From positions 3,853 through 67,852 of the forward strand of contig DASYRJ010000017.1 in assembly GCA_036004525.1 (NCBI GenBank): 64,000 nucleotides of DNA, in the 5' to 3' direction. The notes beneath the pieces were generated by a model, which saw nothing but the letters and a program-made list of their open reading frames with translations, was not told where the DNA came from and ran no database searches. The number at the start of each line of letters is the position of its first letter. Within the stretch, counting starts at the first letter, position 1. Below are positions 3,206-61,820 of this stretch, one piece after another. Source of the DNA: Gemmatimonadales bacterium. GTDB lineage: Bacteria > Gemmatimonadota > Gemmatimonadetes > Gemmatimonadales > GWC2-71-9. Position numbers and translations under genes: made by a program.

Positions 3206-4066
3206 GTGCGGCGGCGCGCGTTGATCGGAGCGGTTGGGGCAGCCTTCGTTGGTTCCCACGCTGAAGCGTGGGCTCGGCGCGGCGTGGCCCTGAAGGGCGC
3301 CGCTGGCCGGCTCAAGCAGTCGGTCTCGCGCTGGCCGTACTCGCGCATCCCGCTTCCTGAATTCTGCCGCGCCTGCGCCGCCATGGGCCTCGCGGCGATC
3401 GATCTCCTGCAGCCCGAGGACTGGCCCGTCGTGCGCGAGCACGGGCTGGTGTCGTCGATGGGTTATCCGACCAAGCGGCGCGATTTCATCCCCACCGGGT
3501 TCAACGACCGCGCCAATCACGCGATGCTGCTCAAGGAGCTCGAGGACACGATCCCGCTCGCCGCGCGGGCGGGCGTGCCGAACGTCATCGCGATGTTCGG
3601 CAACCGAAAAGGCAAGAGCGATGCCGAAGGCATTGACGCCTGCATCGAAGGACTCAGCAAGATCAAGGCGCTCGCCGAGGAGCAGAAGGTGACGGTGTGT
3701 GTCGAGCTGCTCAACAGCAAGGTCGACCACGCCGACTACCAGGGCGATCACACGGCGTTCGGCGTCGCCGTGGTCAAGGCCGTCGGCTCGCCGCGTGTGA
3801 AGCTGCTGTACGACATCTATCACATGCAAATCATGGAAGGCGACATCATCCGCACCATCCGCGACAACCGCGAGTACATTGCCCACTTCCACACGGGCGG
3901 CGTGCCCGGCCGCCACGAGCTGGACGGCACGCAGGAGCTGAACTGGCACGCCGTCGCGGCCGCCATCGCCGACACCGGCTTCCAGGGATACGTGGCGCAC
4001 GAATTCGTCCCGAGCCGCGACCCGCTGCGCTCCCTGCGCGAGGCCATGGAGACTTGCACCGTATGA
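3206..4066 (+). CDS. Hydroxypyruvate isomerase-like TIM barrel protein, Tat-exported
   Basis: RRRALIG leader; ELLNSKVDH.DY, KLLYDIYHMQIMEGD, HFHTGGVPGRHE; start uncertain. Confidence 0.85.
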   Translation: MRRRALIGAVGAAFVGSHAEAWARRGVALKGAAGRLKQSVSRWPYSRIPLPEFCRACAAMGLAAIDLLQPEDWPVVREHGLVSSMGYPTKRRDFIPTGFNDRANHAMLLKELEDTIPLAARAGVPNVIAMFGNRKGKSDAEGIDACIEGLSKIKALAEEQKVTVCVELLNSKVDHADYQGDHTAFGVAVVKAVGSPRVKLLYDIYHMQIMEGDIIRTIRDNREYIAHFHTGGVPGRHELDGTQELNWHAVAAAIADTGFQGYVAHEFVPSRDPLRSLREAMETCTV

Positions 4067-17700: not shown

Positions 17701-18906
17701 TCAGGCCCGATACACGATGCGGCCGGCGAGCACCGTCAACCGGGCGGTAAGGGGCGGTAAGAGACGGGAAGGGGCGGTAGAGGCAAACACTACGAGGTCT
17801 GCCGCCTTCCCGACGTCCAGTGAGCCGATCTCGCCTTCCCAGCCGAGGGCCCGGGCGCCGTCGATCGTGAGCGCGCGGAGGGCTTCCTCCCCCGCCAGTC
17901 CCGCCGCCTGAGTCTCGGCCCACAGATCGAGGTCAGGGACGCTCACCACGGAGTCCGTCCCGATGCCGACGGGGACGCCCGCCGCGCGAAGCGCCGCCGC
18001 GGGCGCGACACCGTGGCGGTGGGCGGCGTTGGACCGGGGGCAATGAGCAATCGTGGCCCCGGCCTGCCGGAGCAGGGTGATATCCGTCCCGTCCACCTGC
18101 ACGCAGTGAATGCAAAGAGTTCCACGTTGTAGGACGCTACGTTGTACGAGGTAGGCGACCGGCGAGCAGTTTCGCGCCTCGACTGCGATCCCGCGTGCCC
18201 GGAGGGCGTCGGCGAAGGGGCCGGCGCCGTCCCGCACGAGCTGCGTCTCCTCCCGGGACTCCGCCAGGTGCACCGCCATCGGCAGACGCTCGCGCCGGGC
18301 GAACGCGGCGACCGCTTCGTACAGCGGCGCGCTGACCGTGTACGGTGCGTGGGGGGAAACGCCGGGCTTCAGTTGCGAAGTTGCAAGACGGCGAAGTTTC
18401 AAGACGGCGGCCTCGAGCTCCGACATGCTCGGAGCGAGCTTGGCAGGGTCGGGACCGAACACCTCCTGAAAGACCATGCCGCGGCCGTGGAGATCGTGCA
18501 GCGCACGCATCACCGCGCCCGTACTGCCGGTCTCCGCGACGCACGTGACCCCCCGCGCCCAACAGTCCTTCAGGCCCGCCACTGCCGCTTCGTAGAATGC
18601 TTCGATCGGGGTCGCGTCCTTCAGCTCGCGGATCCGGCGGATCCACGGCCAGAAGTCGGGCTCGGCGTTCTGGCCGCCGAGATGCGTCAGCTCGAGGTGT
18701 GTGTGACAGTTGACGAGGCCGGGGACGAGCACGGCGTCGCGGAACTCGACGACGTCCGTCTCGGAAGGGGTGGGGACGTACGCGTGGGGACCGACGGCGG
18801 CGATCCGGCCGGTGCCATCCACGAGAACGGCGCCGTCCTCGATCGGCGGCGCCGTTACTGGGTGGACGACGCCGGCTCGTATTCTCAGCGCACGCTGCGA
18901 AGTCAT
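17701..18906 (-). CDS. Metal-dependent amidohydrolase (5'-deoxyadenosine/aminodeoxyfutalosine deaminase-like)
   Basis: PGLVNCHTHLE, SPHAPY, HLAES, HCV, HCPRSN, GTDS; contains repeat insertions. Confidence 0.8.
   Translation of the reverse strand: MTSQRALRIRAGVVHPVTAPPIEDGAVLVDGTGRIAAVGPHAYVPTPSETDVVEFRDAVLVPGLVNCHTHLELTHLGGQNAEPDFWPWIRRIRELKDATPIEAFYEAAVAGLKDCWARGVTCVAETGSTGAVMRALHDLHGRGMVFQEVFGPDPAKLAPSMSELEAAVLKLRRLATSQLKPGVSPHAPYTVSAPLYEAVAAFARRERLPMAVHLAESREETQLVRDGAGPFADALRARGIAVEARNCSPVAYLVQRSVLQRGTLCIHCVQVDGTDITLLRQAGATIAHCPRSNAAHRHGVAPAAALRAAGVPVGIGTDSVVSVPDLDLWAETQAAGLAGEEALRALTIDGARALGWEGEIGSLDVGKAADLVVFASTAPSRLLPPLTARLTVLAGRIVYRA
17741..17780. repeat. Tandem 10-mer GGGGCGGTAA inside the amidohydrolase CDS
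   Basis: cgggcggtaa ggggcggtaa gagacgggaa ggggcggtag, read as STAPSRLLPPLTAR. Confidence 0.7.
18124..18148. repeat. TACGACGC/TACGTTG family fragment inside the amidohydrolase CDS
   Basis: acgttgtaggacgctacgttgtacg matches the 38714 hairpin arm. Confidence 0.7.
18371..18408. repeat. AAGTTGCG/AGACGGCG family fragment inside the amidohydrolase CDS
   Basis: agttgcgaagttgcaagacggcgaagtttcaagacggc resembles the 18929 hairpin. Confidence 0.65.
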
Positions 18907-23055: not shown

Positions 23056-23112
23056 AGGCGTTGTACGACGCTACGACGCTACGTTTTGTGCGTACAACGT
23101 GGCGTCGTACAA
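23056..23112. repeat. TACGACGC-family hairpin element
   Basis: Arms ttgtacgacgctacg (23061-75) and cgtggcgtcgtacaa (23098-112); just after a TAG stop. Confidence 0.85.
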
Positions 23113-23129
23113 TCTAGAACGGATCCGTC

Positions 23130-23780
23130 ATGTTCATCGGCCACTACGCTCTCGGCTTCGCGGCGAAACGCCTGGCGCCCCGCACGTCGCTCGGCACGCT
23201 GTTCGCCGCGCCGACCCTCGCCGATCTGCTGTGGCCGGTGTTCCTCCTGCTCGGGTGGGAGCAGGCGCGCGTCGTTCCGGGGCCCAATCCGTTCCTCAAC
23301 TTGTGGCTCGACAACATTCCCATCTCGCACAGCCTCCTGACTCTGATCGGGTGGGGCGTGCTGTTCGGCTATCTGTACCGGACGCGCACCGGGTACGCGC
23401 GTGGCGCGCTCGTCGTGGGGCTGCTCGTCGTGAGCCACTGGGTGCTCGACGTCGTCACCCACCGCCCCGACATGCCGCTCTACCCGAGCAGTGTGAAGGT
23501 CGGGCTCGGTCTGTGGAACTCGGTGGCCGGCACGCTGATCGTCGAAGGGCTGCTGTTCATCACCGGCATGGTGATCTACATGCGGACCACCCGCCCGCGG
23601 GACGGCATTGGGCGCTGGGGCTTCTGGGCGTTCATCGTCGTACTGGTGGGGTCCTACGTGAGCACGCTGTTCGCGCCACCGCCGACGAACATGACCGCGG
23701 TCGCCGTCTTCGGGATCGTGTTCGGGTGGCTGTTCGTGCTGGTCGGCTGGTGGGTTGATAAACATCGAGAGGCGTTATAG
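23130..23780 (+). CDS. Membrane protein, metal-dependent hydrolase (YdjM-like) superfamily
   Basis: MFIGH, D.LWP, SHSLL, SHWVLD...HRPD; multiple TM segments. Confidence 0.7.
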   Translation: MFIGHYALGFAAKRLAPRTSLGTLFAAPTLADLLWPVFLLLGWEQARVVPGPNPFLNLWLDNIPISHSLLTLIGWGVLFGYLYRTRTGYARGALVVGLLVVSHWVLDVVTHRPDMPLYPSSVKVGLGLWNSVAGTLIVEGLLFITGMVIYMRTTRPRDGIGRWGFWAFIVVLVGSYVSTLFAPPPTNMTAVAVFGIVFGWLFVLVGWWVDKHREAL

Positions 23781-23832
23781 GACGCTACGACGGTGCGTTG
23801 TACGTATGACGTAACGACGTAACGTCGTACAA
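23770..23832. repeat. Degenerate TACGACGC-family element
   Basis: aggcgttataggacgctacgacg is 21/23 identical to 23056-23078; same cgtcgtacaa end. Confidence 0.8.
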
Positions 23833-23838
23833 CACACA

Positions 23839-25026
23839 TCACGTCGCGTCGTCGAGCACCTCGACGACCTTTTCCATCTCCTCGACCGTGTTATAGACAT
23901 GCGGCGATAGCCGGATCGCGCCCTCGCGCAGGCTGCACACGATGCGGGCGCGCTTCACCGCATGGAACGCCTCGGCGGCCTTGGGCGGGGCCACGCACAG
24001 GATCGCCGAGCGGTGGCGTTCCTCGAGCGGCGACACGATCCGCACCCCGTTCTCCTGCGCCCATTTCACGACCGGCTCGTGCGCCGCGCGCGTCACCTCG
24101 GCGATGTCGCGGATCCCGATCTCCAGCAGCAGCCCGAGCGACTCGGTCATCCCGAAGAAATCCTGGAACGGCAGGGTGACCATTTCGAAGCGGCGCGCGT
24201 CGGCGCGGAAGGTGGGGTTGTACTCGGTGAGGCGGGAGAAGTCGTCGGTCCCTTCGAACGCCATCCAACCGGTGATGGCGGGCTCGAGCGAGGCGATCAG
24301 CTCCTTGCGCACGTATACGAACCCCGAGCCCCACGGCGAGAGCAGCCACTTCTGGCCGCCGCAGGCGAGGATGTCCACCGGCGTCTCGCGCAGGTCGAGG
24401 ACCGAGTTCCCCACGCCCTGGATGCCGTCCACCACCAGATACGTCCCGTTGGCGCGGCAGGCCGCGCCCAGCTTTTTCAGGTCGGCGCGGTAGCCGTTCG
24501 AGAACTGCACGAACGACACGGCGAGCACCCGCACGCGGGGATCGCGCAGGCGCTCGAGCAGGTGCTCTTCGTCGGGCCAGCCCTCCGGCCCGCACCGCGC
24601 CATCTCCACGGTGATGCCCCGTTTCTTGAGCAGCAGCCACGGATAGACGTTGGCCGGGAACTCCTTGTCGGACAGCAGCACGATCTCGCCGGGCTGGAGG
24701 GGAAGCGCGCGGGCGGCGAGGTGCAGGCCGAAGCTCGTGTTGGTGGCGAGGGCGATCTCCGACGGGTCGGCGTTGAGGAGCTGGGCCAGGCCGAGCCGCG
24801 CCGCGGCGAGCCCCGCGAACAGCTCGCGATCGGGGAGCAGGTGCGGCGCCGTACGCTTGGCGGTGAACTGATCGAGGGCCCGGCGGGTGCGCTCGGGGAT
24901 GGGGCCGATGCTGGCGTTGTTCAGGTAGACGGTGTCGGCGGTCCAGGGGAACTCGGCCGCGCGCAGCGCGCGGAAGCTCTCGCGCAGGGCGCGCACGCGC
25001 GTCGGATGATACGCGATGTCGGTCAT
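23839..25026 (-). CDS. Class V PLP-dependent aminotransferase/cysteine desulfurase-like
   Basis: YLNNASIGP, NTS.G, EFPANVYPW, VDGIQ, GGQKWLL, IRLSPHVYN. Confidence 0.88.
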   Translation of the reverse strand: MTDIAYHPTRVRALRESFRALRAAEFPWTADTVYLNNASIGPIPERTRRALDQFTAKRTAPHLLPDRELFAGLAAARLGLAQLLNADPSEIALATNTSFGLHLAARALPLQPGEIVLLSDKEFPANVYPWLLLKKRGITVEMARCGPEGWPDEEHLLERLRDPRVRVLAVSFVQFSNGYRADLKKLGAACRANGTYLVVDGIQGVGNSVLDLRETPVDILACGGQKWLLSPWGSGFVYVRKELIASLEPAITGWMAFEGTDDFSRLTEYNPTFRADARRFEMVTLPFQDFFGMTESLGLLLEIGIRDIAEVTRAAHEPVVKWAQENGVRIVSPLEERHRSAILCVAPPKAAEAFHAVKRARIVCSLREGAIRLSPHVYNTVEEMEKVVEVLDDAT

Positions 25027-37835: not shown

Positions 37836-38708
37836 ATGCGTGCACGTCGTTTGGAGCAACGGCCGTCCCTTGAGTCCCTGGTCGAGCGGGTCGATCGCCA
37901 GCATCCCGGGGACGTGCCCGGTGATACCATTCCCACGGGATTCCCGTCCGTCGACAAGATGCTGGGCGGCGGCCTGCGCCGGCGCGACCTCGTGGCCTTG
38001 GGCGGCGATATCGGCGCCGGCAAGTCGGCGCTGGCGCTCGGGATCGCCCTGCGCGTCGCCCAGCAGGGGTTGGGCGTGGCCTTCCTGTCGGGTGAGATGG
38101 ACGAGGAGCGGCTGATGGAGCGGGCCCTCGCGATCGAGGGGCGGGTGGCCGTGGACGAGCTGCGCGCGGCCAAGATGAGCGACCAGACGCGGGCCGGGAT
38201 CGGCGGGGCGGCGGTGCGCCTGCGCGGCCTGCCGCTCACCGTGCTGCCGCTCGCGGCCGACGACTTCGAGACGGTGGTCGAGCGGCTCGATCCACTGCGC
38301 CAGCTCGGCCTGATCGTGGTGGACTACCTGCAGCTCGTCCCGCCCCCGCGCGGCACCGCCCGGGTCACCCAAGATGAGGACACGGCGCTCGTGCTGCGCC
38401 GCCTCAAGGCGCTGGCCCTGGAGCGGCAGGTGGCGCTGCTCGTCGTCGCCCAGCTGCCGCGCTTCGAGGCGCAGCGGTCGAACCCGCGCCCCACCCTCGA
38501 CGACTACGGCGTGCTCGGCGCCCTCAAGCAGCACGCCGACGTCGTGCTGTCGATCTTCCGCGAAGACATGTACAACCCTGGGCGAGGAGTCGAGGGAGCG
38601 ACGGAGCTGCTCGTCGCCAAGAACCGCAACGGCCCGACGGGGTTCGTGGACCTGTACTTCTACCGGCGCTGGATGCGGTTCGAGGACATGCTGGATCCCG
38701 ACAGATAG
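37836..38708 (+). CDS. DnaB-like helicase, C-terminal RecA domain only
   Basis: TGF..VD..LGG, GAGKS, SGEM, VVDYLQL, KNRNG; no N-terminal domain. Confidence 0.8.
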   Translation: MRARRLEQRPSLESLVERVDRQHPGDVPGDTIPTGFPSVDKMLGGGLRRRDLVALGGDIGAGKSALALGIALRVAQQGLGVAFLSGEMDEERLMERALAIEGRVAVDELRAAKMSDQTRAGIGGAAVRLRGLPLTVLPLAADDFETVVERLDPLRQLGLIVVDYLQLVPPPRGTARVTQDEDTALVLRRLKALALERQVALLVVAQLPRFEAQRSNPRPTLDDYGVLGALKQHADVVLSIFREDMYNPGRGVEGATELLVAKNRNGPTGFVDLYFYRRWMRFEDMLDPDR

Positions 38709-38713
38709 ACGTA

Positions 38714-38763
38714 CGTTGTACGACGCTACGTTGTACGACGCTACAACGTAGCGTCGTACAACG
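38714..38763. repeat. Perfect 22-bp stem hairpin (TACGACGC family) between convergent genes; may also act as a terminator
   Basis: cgttgtacgacgctacgttgta-cgacgc-tacaacgtagcgtcgtacaacg. Confidence 0.9.
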
Positions 38764-38764
38764 C

Positions 38765-39169
38765 CTATTTGATCGTGTCCCCCGCCACCATCGCCCCCAC
38801 CAGGGTATACGTCGTCCCCGCCCCGCCGGCGTTCGCCCGCAACGTGAGCCACAACGGCCGCTTGCCCTTCTCGGCGTACATCGTCACGGCGCCGGCCCGG
38901 TCGACCTGATCGGTCTTCAGTTCCCAACCGTTGGCGGGGAGGTTGGTCCGGTACCACTGCGCGACGTCGGTCATCGCGACCGGCGTCGAAAGCACTACCT
39001 CGGCGGCTTCCTCTCCCGCCGCTACGCTGACGAGGCTCGACTGCGGAAAAGCGAGCACGCCCCGCAGTGCGCGAGCGGCGAAGGTGCGCTCTGGCTGGCT
39101 GTCGGCGCGGCGCTCGCAGCCGGCGACGAGGAGCGGCAGGACGAGCAACAAGGGAGCAGCGCGGGACAT
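38765..39169 (-). CDS. Hypothetical lipoprotein
   Basis: MSRAAPLLLVLPLLVAG-C lipobox. Confidence 0.7.
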   Translation of the reverse strand: MSRAAPLLLVLPLLVAGCERRADSQPERTFAARALRGVLAFPQSSLVSVAAGEEAAEVVLSTPVAMTDVAQWYRTNLPANGWELKTDQVDRAGAVTMYAEKGKRPLWLTLRANAGGAGTTYTLVGAMVAGDTIK

Positions 39170-41256: not shown

Positions 41257-41337
41257 ATCCCCAGGCTGAAGCCTGGGCTCGGCACGGCGCTGTCCTTAAG
41301 GACAGGGATTGGCCGAGCCCACCCTTTAGGGTGGGAT
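41257..41337. repeat. REPIN/MITE-like nested palindrome, copy 1
   Basis: ATCC-ccaggc TGAA gcctgg-GCTCGGC ... ctgtcc TTAA ggacag ... GCCGAGC-ccaccc TTTA gggtgg-GAT. Confidence 0.8.
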
Positions 41338-44573: not shown

Positions 44574-44682
44574 ATCCGTGCGTTGAAGCGCCGGCTCGGC
44601 GACGGCGGGCGTCCTCAAGGACGCAGTGGCATTGCCCTTCAGGGCGCGCGGTTTGGCCGAGCCGGCCCTTCAGGGCACGGAT
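44574..44682. repeat. REPIN/MITE-like nested palindrome, copy 2
   Basis: 27-nt inverted ends atccgtgcgttgaagcgccggctcggc / gccgagccggcccttcagggcacggat (3 mismatches); internal gcgtcc TCAA ggacgc and gccc TTCA gggc. Confidence 0.8.
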
Positions 44683-44684
44683 AG

Positions 44685-46218
<1,534 letters not shown>

Positions 46219-48545: not shown

Positions 48546-49343
48546 GTGACCACCGCGGTGGATCTGGTCCGCGACGCGCCGTTGACGATCGGCGGGCGCA
48601 CCTTCCAGTCGCGCCTGATGGTCGGGACCGGCAAGTACAAGGACCACGACACGATGACCCGGGCGATCGAGGCCTCGGGGGCCGAGATCGTCACGGTCGC
48701 CGTGCGCCGCGTGGACCTCGACCGCTCCAAAGAGGCGAGCGTCCTCCACTACCTCGACCCGAAGCGCTTCTTCCTGCTCGCCAACACGGCGGGGTGCTAC
48801 ACCGCGTCCGACGCAATCCGCTACGCGCGCCTCGCCCGCGAGGCCGGCTTCAACGACTTCGTGAAGCTCGAAGTGATCGGCGACGAGGAGACGCTGCTGC
48901 CCGACGTCCAGGGCCTGCTCGACGCGGCGGTCGTCCTCGTGAAAGAAGGCTTCCACGTACTCGCCTACACCAACGAAGACCTCGTGACGGCGCTGCGGCT
49001 CGAGGACGCGGGGTGCGCCGCCGTGATGCCGCTCGCGTCGCCGATCGGGAGCGGGCTCGGCCTCCTGAATCCGTTCAGCGTCCGGACGATCAAGCGACGG
49101 CTTCACGTGCCGGTGGTCGTCGACGCCGGAGTGGGAACCGCCTCGGACGCCTGCGTGACGATGGAGCAGGGCGTGGACGGGATCCTGATGAACACGGCGA
49201 TCGCGGCGGCGCAGGACCCCGTCGCCATGGCGCACGCCATGCGGCTCGCCGTGGAGGCGGGCCGCGCGGCGTTTCTCGCGGGCCGGATGCCGCGGCGCGA
49301 GGTCGCCATGCCGTCCTCTCCGGTCGAGGGGATGCTGGATTAG
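48546..49343 (+). CDS. thiG: Thiazole synthase
   Basis: [37 protein letters not shown]. Confidence 0.96.
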
Positions 49344-50625
49344 GACGGCGACGGCTGCGCGGCGGGCGGCGCTCGCGATTCTCGGCGCGGTCCGCACCGG
49401 CACGCCGTTCGGCGAGGCGCGTGACCGCCACCTGGGCGGCCTCGCCGAGCGGGACCGCCGGCTGGCGTACGAGCTGTCGGCCGGCGTGCTGCGCCGCCAG
49501 GCCGAGCTCGACCGGACGCTCGACTTGACCCGCGCCGATCCCCGCCTGCACGACGTCCTCCGCCTCGGCGCCTACCAGCTCCGCTGCCTGACGCGCGTCC
49601 CTCCCCACGCCGCGGTCGCGACGAGCGTGGAGCTGGCGCGGGAGACCGCGGGCGAGGGGCCGGCGCGGTTCGTGAATCAGGCGCTCAGAAAACTGACGGG
49701 TGTCGGGTATCGGGTGTCGGGTGCCGGGTCGACGCATCCCGAGTGGTTGGTGCGACGATGGGAGGCTCGATTCGGGAAAGCGGATACCCAGCGTCTCTTG
49801 ACGTGGAACGACACGAAGCCGGCGCTCACATTGCAGCCCGCTCGTTGGGATCGAGAGACGCTGGCGCGGCGGCTCCACGAGTCGGGTGTCAGGGTAACAG
49901 AAGCGCCACTCGGAGCCGGCCTGCACATCAACCCGGTACCCGGCACCCGACACCCGATACCCAGTCAGTTACCCGGCTTCAGCGAGGGTGGGTTCATCGT
50001 CCAAGACCCCGCCCACGCCCTGGTCTGCCGCTTTGCAGCGATCCCCGCGGGCGCCCGGGTGTACGACGCCTGCGCCGCCCCCGGTGGCAAGGCCGTGGCG
50101 CTCGAGGCGGCGGGGGCACGGGTGGTGGCCGGCGACGCCCGCCGCGACCGCCTGCCGCGCCTGGCGGAGACGGCGCGTCGCGCGGGAGTGGCGATTCGCT
50201 CCCTCGCGGCCGATCTTGAGGCGGCGCCGTTCGCACCGGGATGCTTCGACGCGGTGCTGGTCGATGCCCCGTGCAGCGCGACGGGGACGATGGCGCGGCA
50301 CCCCGACGCGCGCTGGCGACTCGACCCCGGGGTGTTCGCCCGCGCGGCCGCGCGCCAGGCGCGGCTCGTCGCCGCGGCAGCACCGCTGGTGCGGCCCGGC
50401 GGGCTGCTCATCTACGCGACCTGCTCGCTCGAACCGGACGAGAACACCGCCGTCGTGGAGGACTTCGTGAGCCGACATCCAGAGTTCTCGCGCGCGCCCG
50501 TTGCCCCTCTCCTCCGGGGCGCGGTGCCGGCCGAGCTGCTGACGGCGGCGGGCGACTTCCAGTCGCTCCCCCAGCGGCACGGGATCGACGGCGCCTACGC
50601 GGCGCGGCTGGCGCGGCGCGCCTGA
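49339..50625 (+). CDS. rsmB: 16S rRNA m5C967 methyltransferase RsmB/Sun
   Basis: NusB-like N-terminus ([14 protein letters not shown]) upstream of GTG 49486; [21 protein letters not shown]; probable ATT start 49339. Confidence 0.88.
49697..49962. repeat. Split TCGGGTR heptamer inverted repeat inside rsmB
   Basis: 49705-49729 is the exact reverse complement of 49938-49962; arms about 200 nt apart, frame preserved. Confidence 0.88.
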
Positions 50626-61726: not shown

Positions 61727-61748
61727 GCGAGGAATATCAGCGATCTCT

Positions 61749-61820
61749 CGGGTGTCGGGTATCGGGTATCGGGTGCCGGGTTTTGCACCACCCGACACCC
61801 GGCACCCGACACCCGGCACC
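61749..61820. repeat. TCGGGTR heptamer hairpin, intergenic
   Basis: cgggtgtcgggtatcgggtatcgggtgccgggt, loop, then acccgacacccggcacccgacacccggcacc. Confidence 0.88.

Follow-up and report, generated by a model that had tools for sequence, protein, structure and literature searches.

Inverted heptamer arms mark the ends of an rsmB domain cassette that differs blockwise between close relatives in Gemmatimonadales

The window analysed here is a stretch of 64,000 nucleotides (nt) from a Gemmatimonadales bacterium (contig DASYRJ010000017.1, positions 3,853 to 67,852), in which an rsmB-family gene for a 16S rRNA m5C methyltransferase contains two inverted arrays of a G-rich heptamer that enclose the coding sequence of a single domain. 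The top NCBIfam matches of the product are RsmB models, each under the cut-off of its model. The ferredoxin-like domain (PF22458) is assigned by Pfam to residues 131-189, between the arms, with a NusB-like domain N-terminal and the methyltransferase domain C-terminal to it. No ATG, GTG or TTG is present near the point where homology starts, and at 49339-49345 an in-frame ATT that overlaps the end of the upstream gene may be the start codon. The features of the locus, in window coordinates, are the following.

49345..50625, forward strand: rsmB-family 16S rRNA m5C methyltransferase gene with NusB-like, ferredoxin-like and methyltransferase domains; homology from near 49348
49691..49697, forward strand: outer 7-bp stem extension, left side; pairs with 49964-49970 in the predicted fold
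49698..49729, forward strand: left G-rich arm, about 4.5 units of GGGTRYC, exact core 49705-49729; translated, in the linker before the ferredoxin-like domain
49730..49930, forward strand: enclosed coding segment, the exchanged interior, rich in A/T third positions; PF22458 match at about 49735-49911
49931..49962, forward strand: right C-rich arm, reverse complement of the left, exact core 49938-49962; translated, in the linker before the methyltransferase domain
49964..49970, forward strand: outer 7-bp stem extension, right side; pairs with 49691-49697 in the predicted fold
49676..49974, no strand assigned: minimal exchanged unit, as the equivalent position from the cleanest swaps in relatives, with switches 59-52 nt before and 235-239 nt after the HPxW codon (49735)
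49593..50061, no strand assigned: wider divergent block from three older genome pairs, comprising the arms and about 75-100 nt per side

A first-pass annotation, made from the letters of the window, had described exact 25-nt inverted arms that are translated in frame, and this description is accurate. The two cores are 100% complementary and 208 nt apart, each is read in the rsmB frame as 10 residues, and they sit in period-7 arrays (49697-49729 and about 49931-49962). The GGGTRYC arm has four GGG tracts; other families, such as GGCTATC and GGCGTGC, have only GG. The predicted fold of the strand has a z score of -5.9, and none of 100 shuffles was equally stable. The 2.9-Mb genome has 20 sites with exact inverted repeats of at least 20 nt within 1 kb, and two shuffled genomes have none. 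The enclosed segment contains an 11-bp exact inverted repeat of its own (49788-49798 / 49854-49864) and a shorter one near 49740/49906, both contributing to the predicted fold. The stretch was recovered with 0-3 differences in contigs from three public DNA runs, which are listed as soil metagenomes and the best of which may be the source sample. No RNA dataset was among those listed for it, and one further run and those with small shares did not cover the interior usably.

The same annotation had remarked on the A/T-ending codons of the interior. Third positions are A or T in 19 of its 66 codons, compared with 30 of 333 elsewhere in the gene, arms excluded (Fisher p 4.8e-5), and 19 such positions are reached by 0.3% of 10,525 array-free segments of 67 codons.

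Divergence of the enclosed domain among relatives

In nearly all of 30 genomes of the genus, arrays are found at these two rsmB linkers; the units differ, and the left arm matches the right. For a broader comparison, 153 loci were collected, of which 36 failed motif or length filters and 11 were duplicates; 13 of the remaining 106 were excluded as distant or partial. The resulting 93 alleles come from genomes and metagenomes, mostly metagenome assemblies, and pairs drawn from them are not independent. At least 11 unit families of arm pairs occupy the two linkers. Arms match their own partner (score of at least 12) in 73 of the 93 alleles, against 12.7% of 3,000 random cross-pairs, and no arms are present in eleven outgroup rsmB genes from a sister family, a comparison from which rows L009 and L042 were dropped. 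Mismatches between arms, read on the coding strand, comprise 41 G-U and 68 A-C combinations (74 alleles, not independent). The lack of a G-U preference on the transcript strand points to DNA, not mRNA, as the folding strand, and the same counts speak against an mRNA stem, an RNase III site or an excised intervening sequence of the rRNA type.

The history of the interior departs from that of its flanks. When a tree was built from the interior only, leaving out the arms, alleles fell into groups by arm family, in conflict with the flank tree. The log-likelihood (lnL) gap by which the interior rejects the flank tree is 313-328 units, compared with 26-59 for nine control windows of 192 nt; for the 96 nt immediately outside each arm the gaps are 121 and 146. 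With 71 of 73 rows labelled, the interior tree needs 18 changes of arm family, against 33 each for the flank tree and for a flank control of equal length.

Pairwise comparisons locate the difference. Divergence equal to that of the flanks would have spoken against the first-pass proposal of local rewriting between the repeats, and the interior was instead found to be far more divergent: of 34 close pairs (flanks less than 7% apart), 18 reach a divergence of 20% or more in all three 100-nt bins that run from arm to arm, and in the remaining 39 bins 0-3 pairs each reach that level. Strains with flanks 0-7% apart differ by 25-44% in the block from arm to arm, and two interior classes are found in 9 of 14 close clusters. 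For L143/L245, L216/L249 and L192/L199, flanks 0.0-0.4% apart surround interiors 33-41% apart. Pairs less than 1% apart have a bimodal interior, with 7 of 11 identical or nearly so and 4 of 11 beyond 30%. Divergence does not stop strictly at the arms: in older comparisons it reaches 50-100 nt past each of them.

Alleles resembling donors could be recognised. L249 and L236 are 3.7% apart inside and 12.5% apart in the flanks; for L002 and L194 the values are 6.9% and 21.6%. When L249 was painted against a recipient-like allele and three donor-like alleles, a two-switch mosaic accounted for 141 of 148 informative sites (L236), switching about 13-20 nt upstream of the left arm and 3-7 nt downstream of the right one (L236, L233; the interval is wider with L219). 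Switch points of other events range from -37 to -139 and from +235 to +359 nt relative to the HPxW codon. Three clean swaps have a common left switch interval at about -59 to -52, and wide-block boundaries in older pairs fall at conserved motifs. As for the window allele, its nearest relative by flank sequence, L214 (6.5%), has arms of another kind and differs by 25% in the interior; L133, with flanks 17% away, has an identical left arm and an interior 12.7% away. The mosaic fit of the window allele is weaker (100 of 133 sites).

Swapped alleles retain the conserved residues of the domain, and their differences are chiefly at third positions, which argues for old alleles, not mutational bursts. 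On these comparisons, the divergent blocks are very probably old alleles, kept under purifying selection and moved between lineages. The exchange of a repeat-bounded patch, one of two origins that the first-pass annotation had offered, is strongly supported by the mosaic blocks, the grouping of the interior tree by arm family, the donor-like alleles and the sharp junctions. Steady mutagenesis of a looped-out strand, the other origin, is not supported as the source of the differences, in view both of the conserved residues and of 11 unswapped close pairs, in which four-fold-site differences are 0.104 inside and 0.139 in the far flank (pairs chosen for low inside distance).

The A/T signal depends on the arms. 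In all 30 genomes compared, the interior has a lower third-position G+C content than the flanks taken together. At four-fold degenerate sites, the G+C content (GC4) of the interior is 0.71 in alleles with paired inverted arms (73 alleles), 0.85 in armless or decayed alleles (8) and 0.96 in direct-oriented alleles (4 related alleles), compared with 0.82 for the same domain in the outgroup (11 genes) and 0.84-0.95 in the far flanks. Low GC4 thus requires paired inverted arms, and a mutational or compositional effect tied to pairing remains. At four-fold sites, A and T stand at 0.15 and 0.14 inside versus 0.06 and 0.06 outside; this equal rise does not fit adenine-specific mutagenesis of the kind associated with diversity-generating retroelements (DGRs). 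In L165, L243, L247 and L253 the left arm is flipped, so that both arms are C-rich on the coding strand; their interior GC4 is 0.96, with no A/T enrichment.

Arrays, cassettes and divergence halos elsewhere in the genome

The host genome assembly amounts to 2.9 Mb and is 74% complete, and all gene absences given here hold for that fraction. It contains 207 arrays of period 7 and 124 of period 8; over all periods from 4 to 12 other than 7, the counts are 6-124. The arms are about 4-4.7 units long. Among 61 opposite-oriented neighbours of the same arm family, 56 run from a G-rich arm to a C-rich arm, 55 of these with spacers of 6 to 1,042 nt; 61 is a lower bound, the automatic pairing having missed the rsmB pair itself. 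A short-spacer GGGTRYC pair also lies in the window.

61748..61820, forward strand: GGGTRYC arm pair with a 7-nt spacer, intergenic

Spacers of about 470 nt hold genes for four-helix-bundle proteins (TIGR02436, PF05635), of which the genome has 13 matching TIGR02436. Three of these, from one clade, are enclosed by GGGTRYC arms, the arm unit of rsmB. In nine relatives, 50 of 54 TIGR02436 genes have flanking inverted repeats scoring at least 14 (a count without a shuffle control), and the arm type tracks the protein clade. TIGR02436 proteins weakly resemble the DGR protein Avd (E 2e-5, under the cut-off). A TIGR02436 cassette of the same arm family as the genome's own rsmB was present in 2 of 10 genomes (G000 and G013; all TIGR02436 matches were read, save 3 of 11 in G034), by which the need for a cognate four-helix-bundle gene in the same genome is rejected. 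The cassette site on the pfpI side is empty in most syntenic relatives, and no close pair differs there. At G000:C97:17029-17554 lies a 542-nt four-helix-bundle cassette; most relatives have at that place two genes with overlapping stop codons, and one has another four-helix-bundle cassette, with other arms, near the same gene end.

No reverse transcriptase (PF00078), Y1 transposase or GxxExxY gene was found in the assembly. For this 74%-complete genome, a DGR or retro-homing element was dismissed on the missing reverse transcriptase and on the single rsmB match, with no template copy, and a RAYT/IS200 element on the missing Y1 transposase. A cassette with an Ssn-like or DUF559 nuclease between these arms was sought and not found; small GIY-YIG and DUF559 genes are present without adjoining period-7/8 arrays.

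Other arm pairs enclose host coding sequence, and the split-arm cases that the first-pass annotation had recommended looking for were found at hflX and at a leuB-like gene. The latter has matched split arms in 9 of 29 genomes. At hflX (G000:C94:519-1628), matched pairs of several families, right-only alleles and empty alleles occur, as judged from the protein alignment, right arms and pair distances; of 25 genomes, 6 have right-arm-only alleles, and two have a left arm that is tandemly expanded. Host coding sequence is also enclosed by split-arm pairs at G000:C31:257-985, C66:4062-5159, C101:41909-42143, C101:110327-110541, C69:35054-35199 and C33:35424-35547, one of them in what we take to be the lipoyl-domain region of a dehydrogenase E2 subunit. 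A sister case in the window is an insert in tgt.

45218..45312, forward strand: tgt insert, an in-frame hairpin of 8-mers; optional in relatives and variable in family, with a halo of divergence

By our reading of the alignment, the tgt insert is present in 15 of 31 genomes and absent from 16; it belongs to several families, and the residues beside it follow the insert family. In a pair otherwise mostly 0-8% apart, divergence jumps to 0.17-0.42 at tgt and to 0.15-0.35 in a block of hflX. Over 97 kb compared in three genome pairs, divergence is about 0.3 beside arrays and reaches background by 100-150 nt, as in a profile of 0.33, 0.20, 0.14 and 0.11 that then declines to 0.04. Four-fold-site G+C in the host genome likewise dips across 50-100 nt around arrays.

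A model of exchange and its rivals

The two heptamer arms are the ends of an in-frame cassette of about 290 nt that comprises one whole RsmB domain and differs blockwise between close relatives. A simple model would suggest that this cassette is replaced by homologous recombination with incoming single-stranded DNA, the arms folding and the unmatched interior being looped out; on the sequence comparisons, a probability of about 0.6 is assigned to this reading. The junctions lie outside the arms, are variable and fall in conserved sequence, which argues for homology-directed replacement, not site-specific recombination. The route would probably be natural transformation with RecA pairing in the conserved flanks, and the donor and resident interiors may well fold out on their own arms, the flanks pairing as if continuous. 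Folded loops escape mismatch repair, as is known from yeast and bacterial work; here the folded loop would survive repair, and the donor flank bases would mostly be lost. Repeated events with variable end points would build the halo of 50-100 nt that is observed around arrays genome-wide. The genome holds two comEC genes (comEC-family genes at G000:C86:1050-1820 and C69:53708-54463), dprA, a comM-like gene and mutS.

Two steps of the model are weak. The arms would originate from the four-helix-bundle cassettes, which would themselves spread by the same route. The loss of G+C from the interior could result from mutagenesis during transfer or from a loss of GC-biased conversion, as the segment would seldom pair with other alleles. 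The second possibility leaves the G+C dip just outside the arms unexplained.

Several observations weigh against this model. Competence genes are widespread, and a comEC match was obtained in 10 of 14 control genomes. Donor flanks of 3-20 nt are short for RecA, so that trimming or another enzyme must be assumed; these very short flanks and the strict arm polarity are not fully explained by the model. The approximately unbiased (AU) test rejected the flank tree for all control windows too, so that its p-values were discarded and it is the lnL gap, by its size, that is used. For most swapped alleles the set of 93 contains no close donor, the nearest interior being 24-37% away (L143, L245, L206, L010, L021, L139), and 20 of the 93 lack matched arms: these are mostly armless or decayed, two (L138, L232) look mismatched, and four have the left arm flipped. 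L214 and L222 share half of their interior (3% apart) beneath different arm families. Together with the single-arm hflX alleles, which speak against whole-unit transfer, this indicates that the unit is not always moved whole. Divergent blocks without a detected array make up 11 of 22, 28 of 33 and 9 of 13 in three genome pairs, and L143/L245 have a tract of at least 600 nt, about 20% divergent, that starts within the rpe-like gene, some 1,750 nt past the HPxW codon; the single junction visible has no array. The array-free blocks and the rpe tract imply that ordinary recombination between lineages is common in these bacteria.

L214/L222 is the sole internal chimera among 39 pairs with a close half and may indicate that, when the right arm is new, the left can be adapted to match it. 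In L214, L222 and L001 the register of the left arm differs among three families, and the adjoining interior is nearly shared, a pattern that suggests arm-to-arm copying or very short patches.

Alternatively, exchange might be driven by a dedicated homing or arm-writing activity, in which an Avd-like four-helix-bundle protein or a structure-specific nuclease recognises the arms, cuts the DNA at the base of the stem or holds it there, and so brings about replacement, with the rsmB domain as a non-autonomous passenger. This is unlikely, yet it is the rival kept in consideration because of the short donor flanks and the strict polarity: the order of G-rich then C-rich arm in 56 of 61 pairs would be superfluous for plain hairpin folding. 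The TIGR02436 cassettes fit it as well, through the three in GGGTRYC arms from one clade among the 13 genes, the arm-flanked 50 of 54 in relatives (again without a shuffle control), whose arm type follows the protein clade, and the sub-threshold resemblance to Avd. So does the left switch common to three clean swaps, and a precedent is given, in the cited sections, by SsnA, which cuts NTS hairpins in transformation (PMC11893778). On the other hand, a same-family cassette accompanies rsmB in 2 of 10 genomes, the junctions are variable (-37 to -139 and +235 to +359), searches of the 74%-complete genome yielded neither a reverse transcriptase nor a Y1 transposase or GxxExxY gene, and the small GIY-YIG and DUF559 genes adjoin no period-7/8 arrays. 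Moreover, the match between protein and arm is explicable by co-transfer alone, as the rsmB interior too follows the arm family.

Ordinary recombination combined with long-term balancing selection is an improbable account, by which old domain alleles were imported in long tracts and later trimmed by conspecific DNA, the arms being bystanders in tolerant linkers. It would explain why arms coincide with domain edges, why wide blocks end at conserved motifs, why array-free divergent blocks are common and why the domain is variable in the armless outgroup too (amino-acid difference 0.45). It does not readily accommodate halos around arrays in unrelated genes and between genes, or a GC4 loss that depends on arm orientation and is not seen in the outgroup; many precise events would be needed to trim both sides to 3-20 nt around an interior 3.7% from a donor-like allele. 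Rewriting in place, with the looped-out strand mutagenised and the arms homogenised by slippage and arm-to-arm template switching, so that units change along vertical descent, is as a main cause largely refuted and very improbable. The A/T enrichment tied to paired arms and the many alleles without a close donor would agree with it, and the differing arm registers of L001, L214 and L222 over a nearly shared interior suggest arm-to-arm copying as a secondary process; against it stand the bimodal distances among pairs less than 1% apart (7 of 11 near-identical, 4 of 11 beyond 30%), the retention of conserved residues with third positions dominating, the grouping of interiors by arm family over distant flank lineages and the existence of donor-like alleles.

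Assembly chimeras between co-occurring species are a scarcely credible source of the apparent swaps. The data are mostly metagenome assemblies, and L249, L245, L199 and L206 were each seen once. Against three donor proxies, however, the switch intervals are 2-7 nt, lengths that assembler k-mers usually exceed; the two alleles of L139/L141 each recur in two records, the cores of L143 and L216 are found in four and three, respectively, and the family-wide tree pattern and GC4 effect are independent of single contigs. An invertible, phase-variable segment, which the first-pass annotation had entertained on account of the exact inverted arms, is the least probable of all. The interior was on the coding strand at 121 of 123 loci, on the opposite strand at none and undetected at 2, so that 0 of 121 detected interiors are inverted. 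No strand-changing joint was among the public-contig joints listed (15 of 49 in one comparison, both in the other), contigs being prone to drop rare variants, and two arm-to-arm 'skip' joints derive from short-spacer copies elsewhere in the genome. Excision of exactly the interior was likewise considered and rejected: the two skip joints match those copies, a third searched motif was not found in the assembly, and none carries an rsmB flank.

Known systems, significance and further repeats

The closest structural parallel lies in the four-helix-bundle cassettes, which have the same arm families, the same G-then-C polarity and an arm-enclosed passenger. Unlike these cassettes and intervening sequences that bear an open reading frame, the rsmB passenger is an in-frame part of a host gene (PF22458), and with no G-U bias there is no sign of an excised RNA stem. 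Homing introns, inteins, homing endonucleases, minimal mobile elements and mosaic pbp genes undergo allelic replacement through flank homology, and the rsmB cassette resembles them in the fixed site and variable co-conversion. It differs in having no endonuclease inside the interior, no evident antibiotic or immune selection and a delimitation by translated inverted arms; the interior is host coding sequence, and no linked endonuclease or maturase was detected among the families searched in the 74%-complete genome. DGRs rewrite a coding patch locally near a hairpin, and as with them an Avd-like family is linked to the arms, but no reverse transcriptase or second template copy was found, A and T rise equally, and the alleles are old and under purifying selection. 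Unlike an integron cassette (attC x attC), the switch points lie outside the arms and vary, with no fixed crossover in a folded site.

In working principle, the nearest case is that of the Neisseria NIME and NTS repeats, as far as the cited sections describe them. Of 19 tbpB replacement fragments, 13 end at or near a NIME/dRS3 array; the repeats lie beside surface-antigen genes, and the replacement fragments are 1.5-9.9 kb long (PMC1797815). NTS hairpins, 2% of which are within genes, are cut during transformation by SsnA, which lowers integration (PMC11893778). In both settings, according to these sections, hairpin-type repeats adjoin locally divergent sequence and are proposed to promote or modulate exchange with exogenous DNA, and the repeat-gene-repeat layout around the nuclease gene of NTS-Ssn is a further likeness. 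The Neisseria repeats are described there as short, self-contained palindromes, rarely in genes; the rsmB arms are tandem heptamers 200 nt apart, translated, in housekeeping genes, belong to many unit families and move with a protein domain over about 0.3 kb, and no cognate nuclease was found for them in the assembly. The host genome has one small GIY-YIG gene without flanking period-7/8 arrays and 23 matches to the published SRM pattern, counted without a shuffle control and unmapped to the gene.

By unit, the rsmB repeats belong to the class of G-rich heptamers described in the cited sections for Xanthomonas (GGGNATC) and Nostoc (GGGGA(C/T)T), which come mostly in about four copies, form 70 and 75 convergent inverted pairs in two xanthomonads, are mainly intergenic and are read as G-quadruplex or regulatory elements at conserved locations (PMC4692102). 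A 7-nt G-rich unit in about four copies, over-representation and convergent inverted pairs are shared with rsmB. The TAACTGA repeats of Beggiatoaceae form a further 7-nt class in the portion cited (PMC4679880). For none of these three groups do the consulted parts of the papers report domain-flanking pairs, co-varying families or allele exchange, and several rsmB families have only GG runs. No published description of arm-bounded domain exchange was found in a search that left out most subscription journals and supplements.

What appears to be new is repeat-linked local recombination with translated arms that stand on either side of a domain and belong to many families; the heptamer class and repeat-linked exchange of the Neisseria type are already known. 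A repeat class that the cited papers leave unexplained gains a measurable behaviour, in that short exchanges of alleles are marked, and probably caused, by its arrays. In rsmB, one domain of a housekeeping enzyme moves in frame and with sharp ends between lineages at 25-44% divergence, at which ordinary homologous recombination with sharp ends is not often expected. For phylogenomics, core genes of such genomes are mosaics at arm sites. The domain also provides a natural experiment on what keeps bacterial genomes rich in G+C: its GC4 is 0.71 where the arms are inverted, 0.85 where they are lacking and 0.96 where they are direct. If it is true that paired arms raise the uptake of unmatched DNA, a simple rule for natural transformation would follow. 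More tentatively, it is possible, if doubtful, that heptamer and octamer arrays, so far unexplained in many bacteria, form the ends of units in a general exchange system, in which arms of four-helix-bundle cassettes, once installed around host sequence, would make swappable cassettes that cross species at 30-45% divergence with near-precise junctions and a dedicated arm-reading protein, the enclosed DNA escaping the force that maintains G+C.

Among the remaining features, the neighbouring open reading frames of rsmB are presumably thiG-like, PASTA-like and rpe-like, by our own reading of their translations. A DUF559 nuclease-like gene at G000:C79:3234-3515 lies inside a different inverted repeat family, with arms of about 30 nt and direct copies downstream. 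A second palindromic repeat family, which is non-tandem, occurs in the window at 44574-44682, 41260-41336 and 3254-3303. The window also carries arrays of period 8, 10, 15 and 16 (17742-17779, 18375-18409, 38708-38767, 23056-23850); arms of longer period enclose four-helix-bundle genes in relatives, and the class is therefore not restricted to heptamers.

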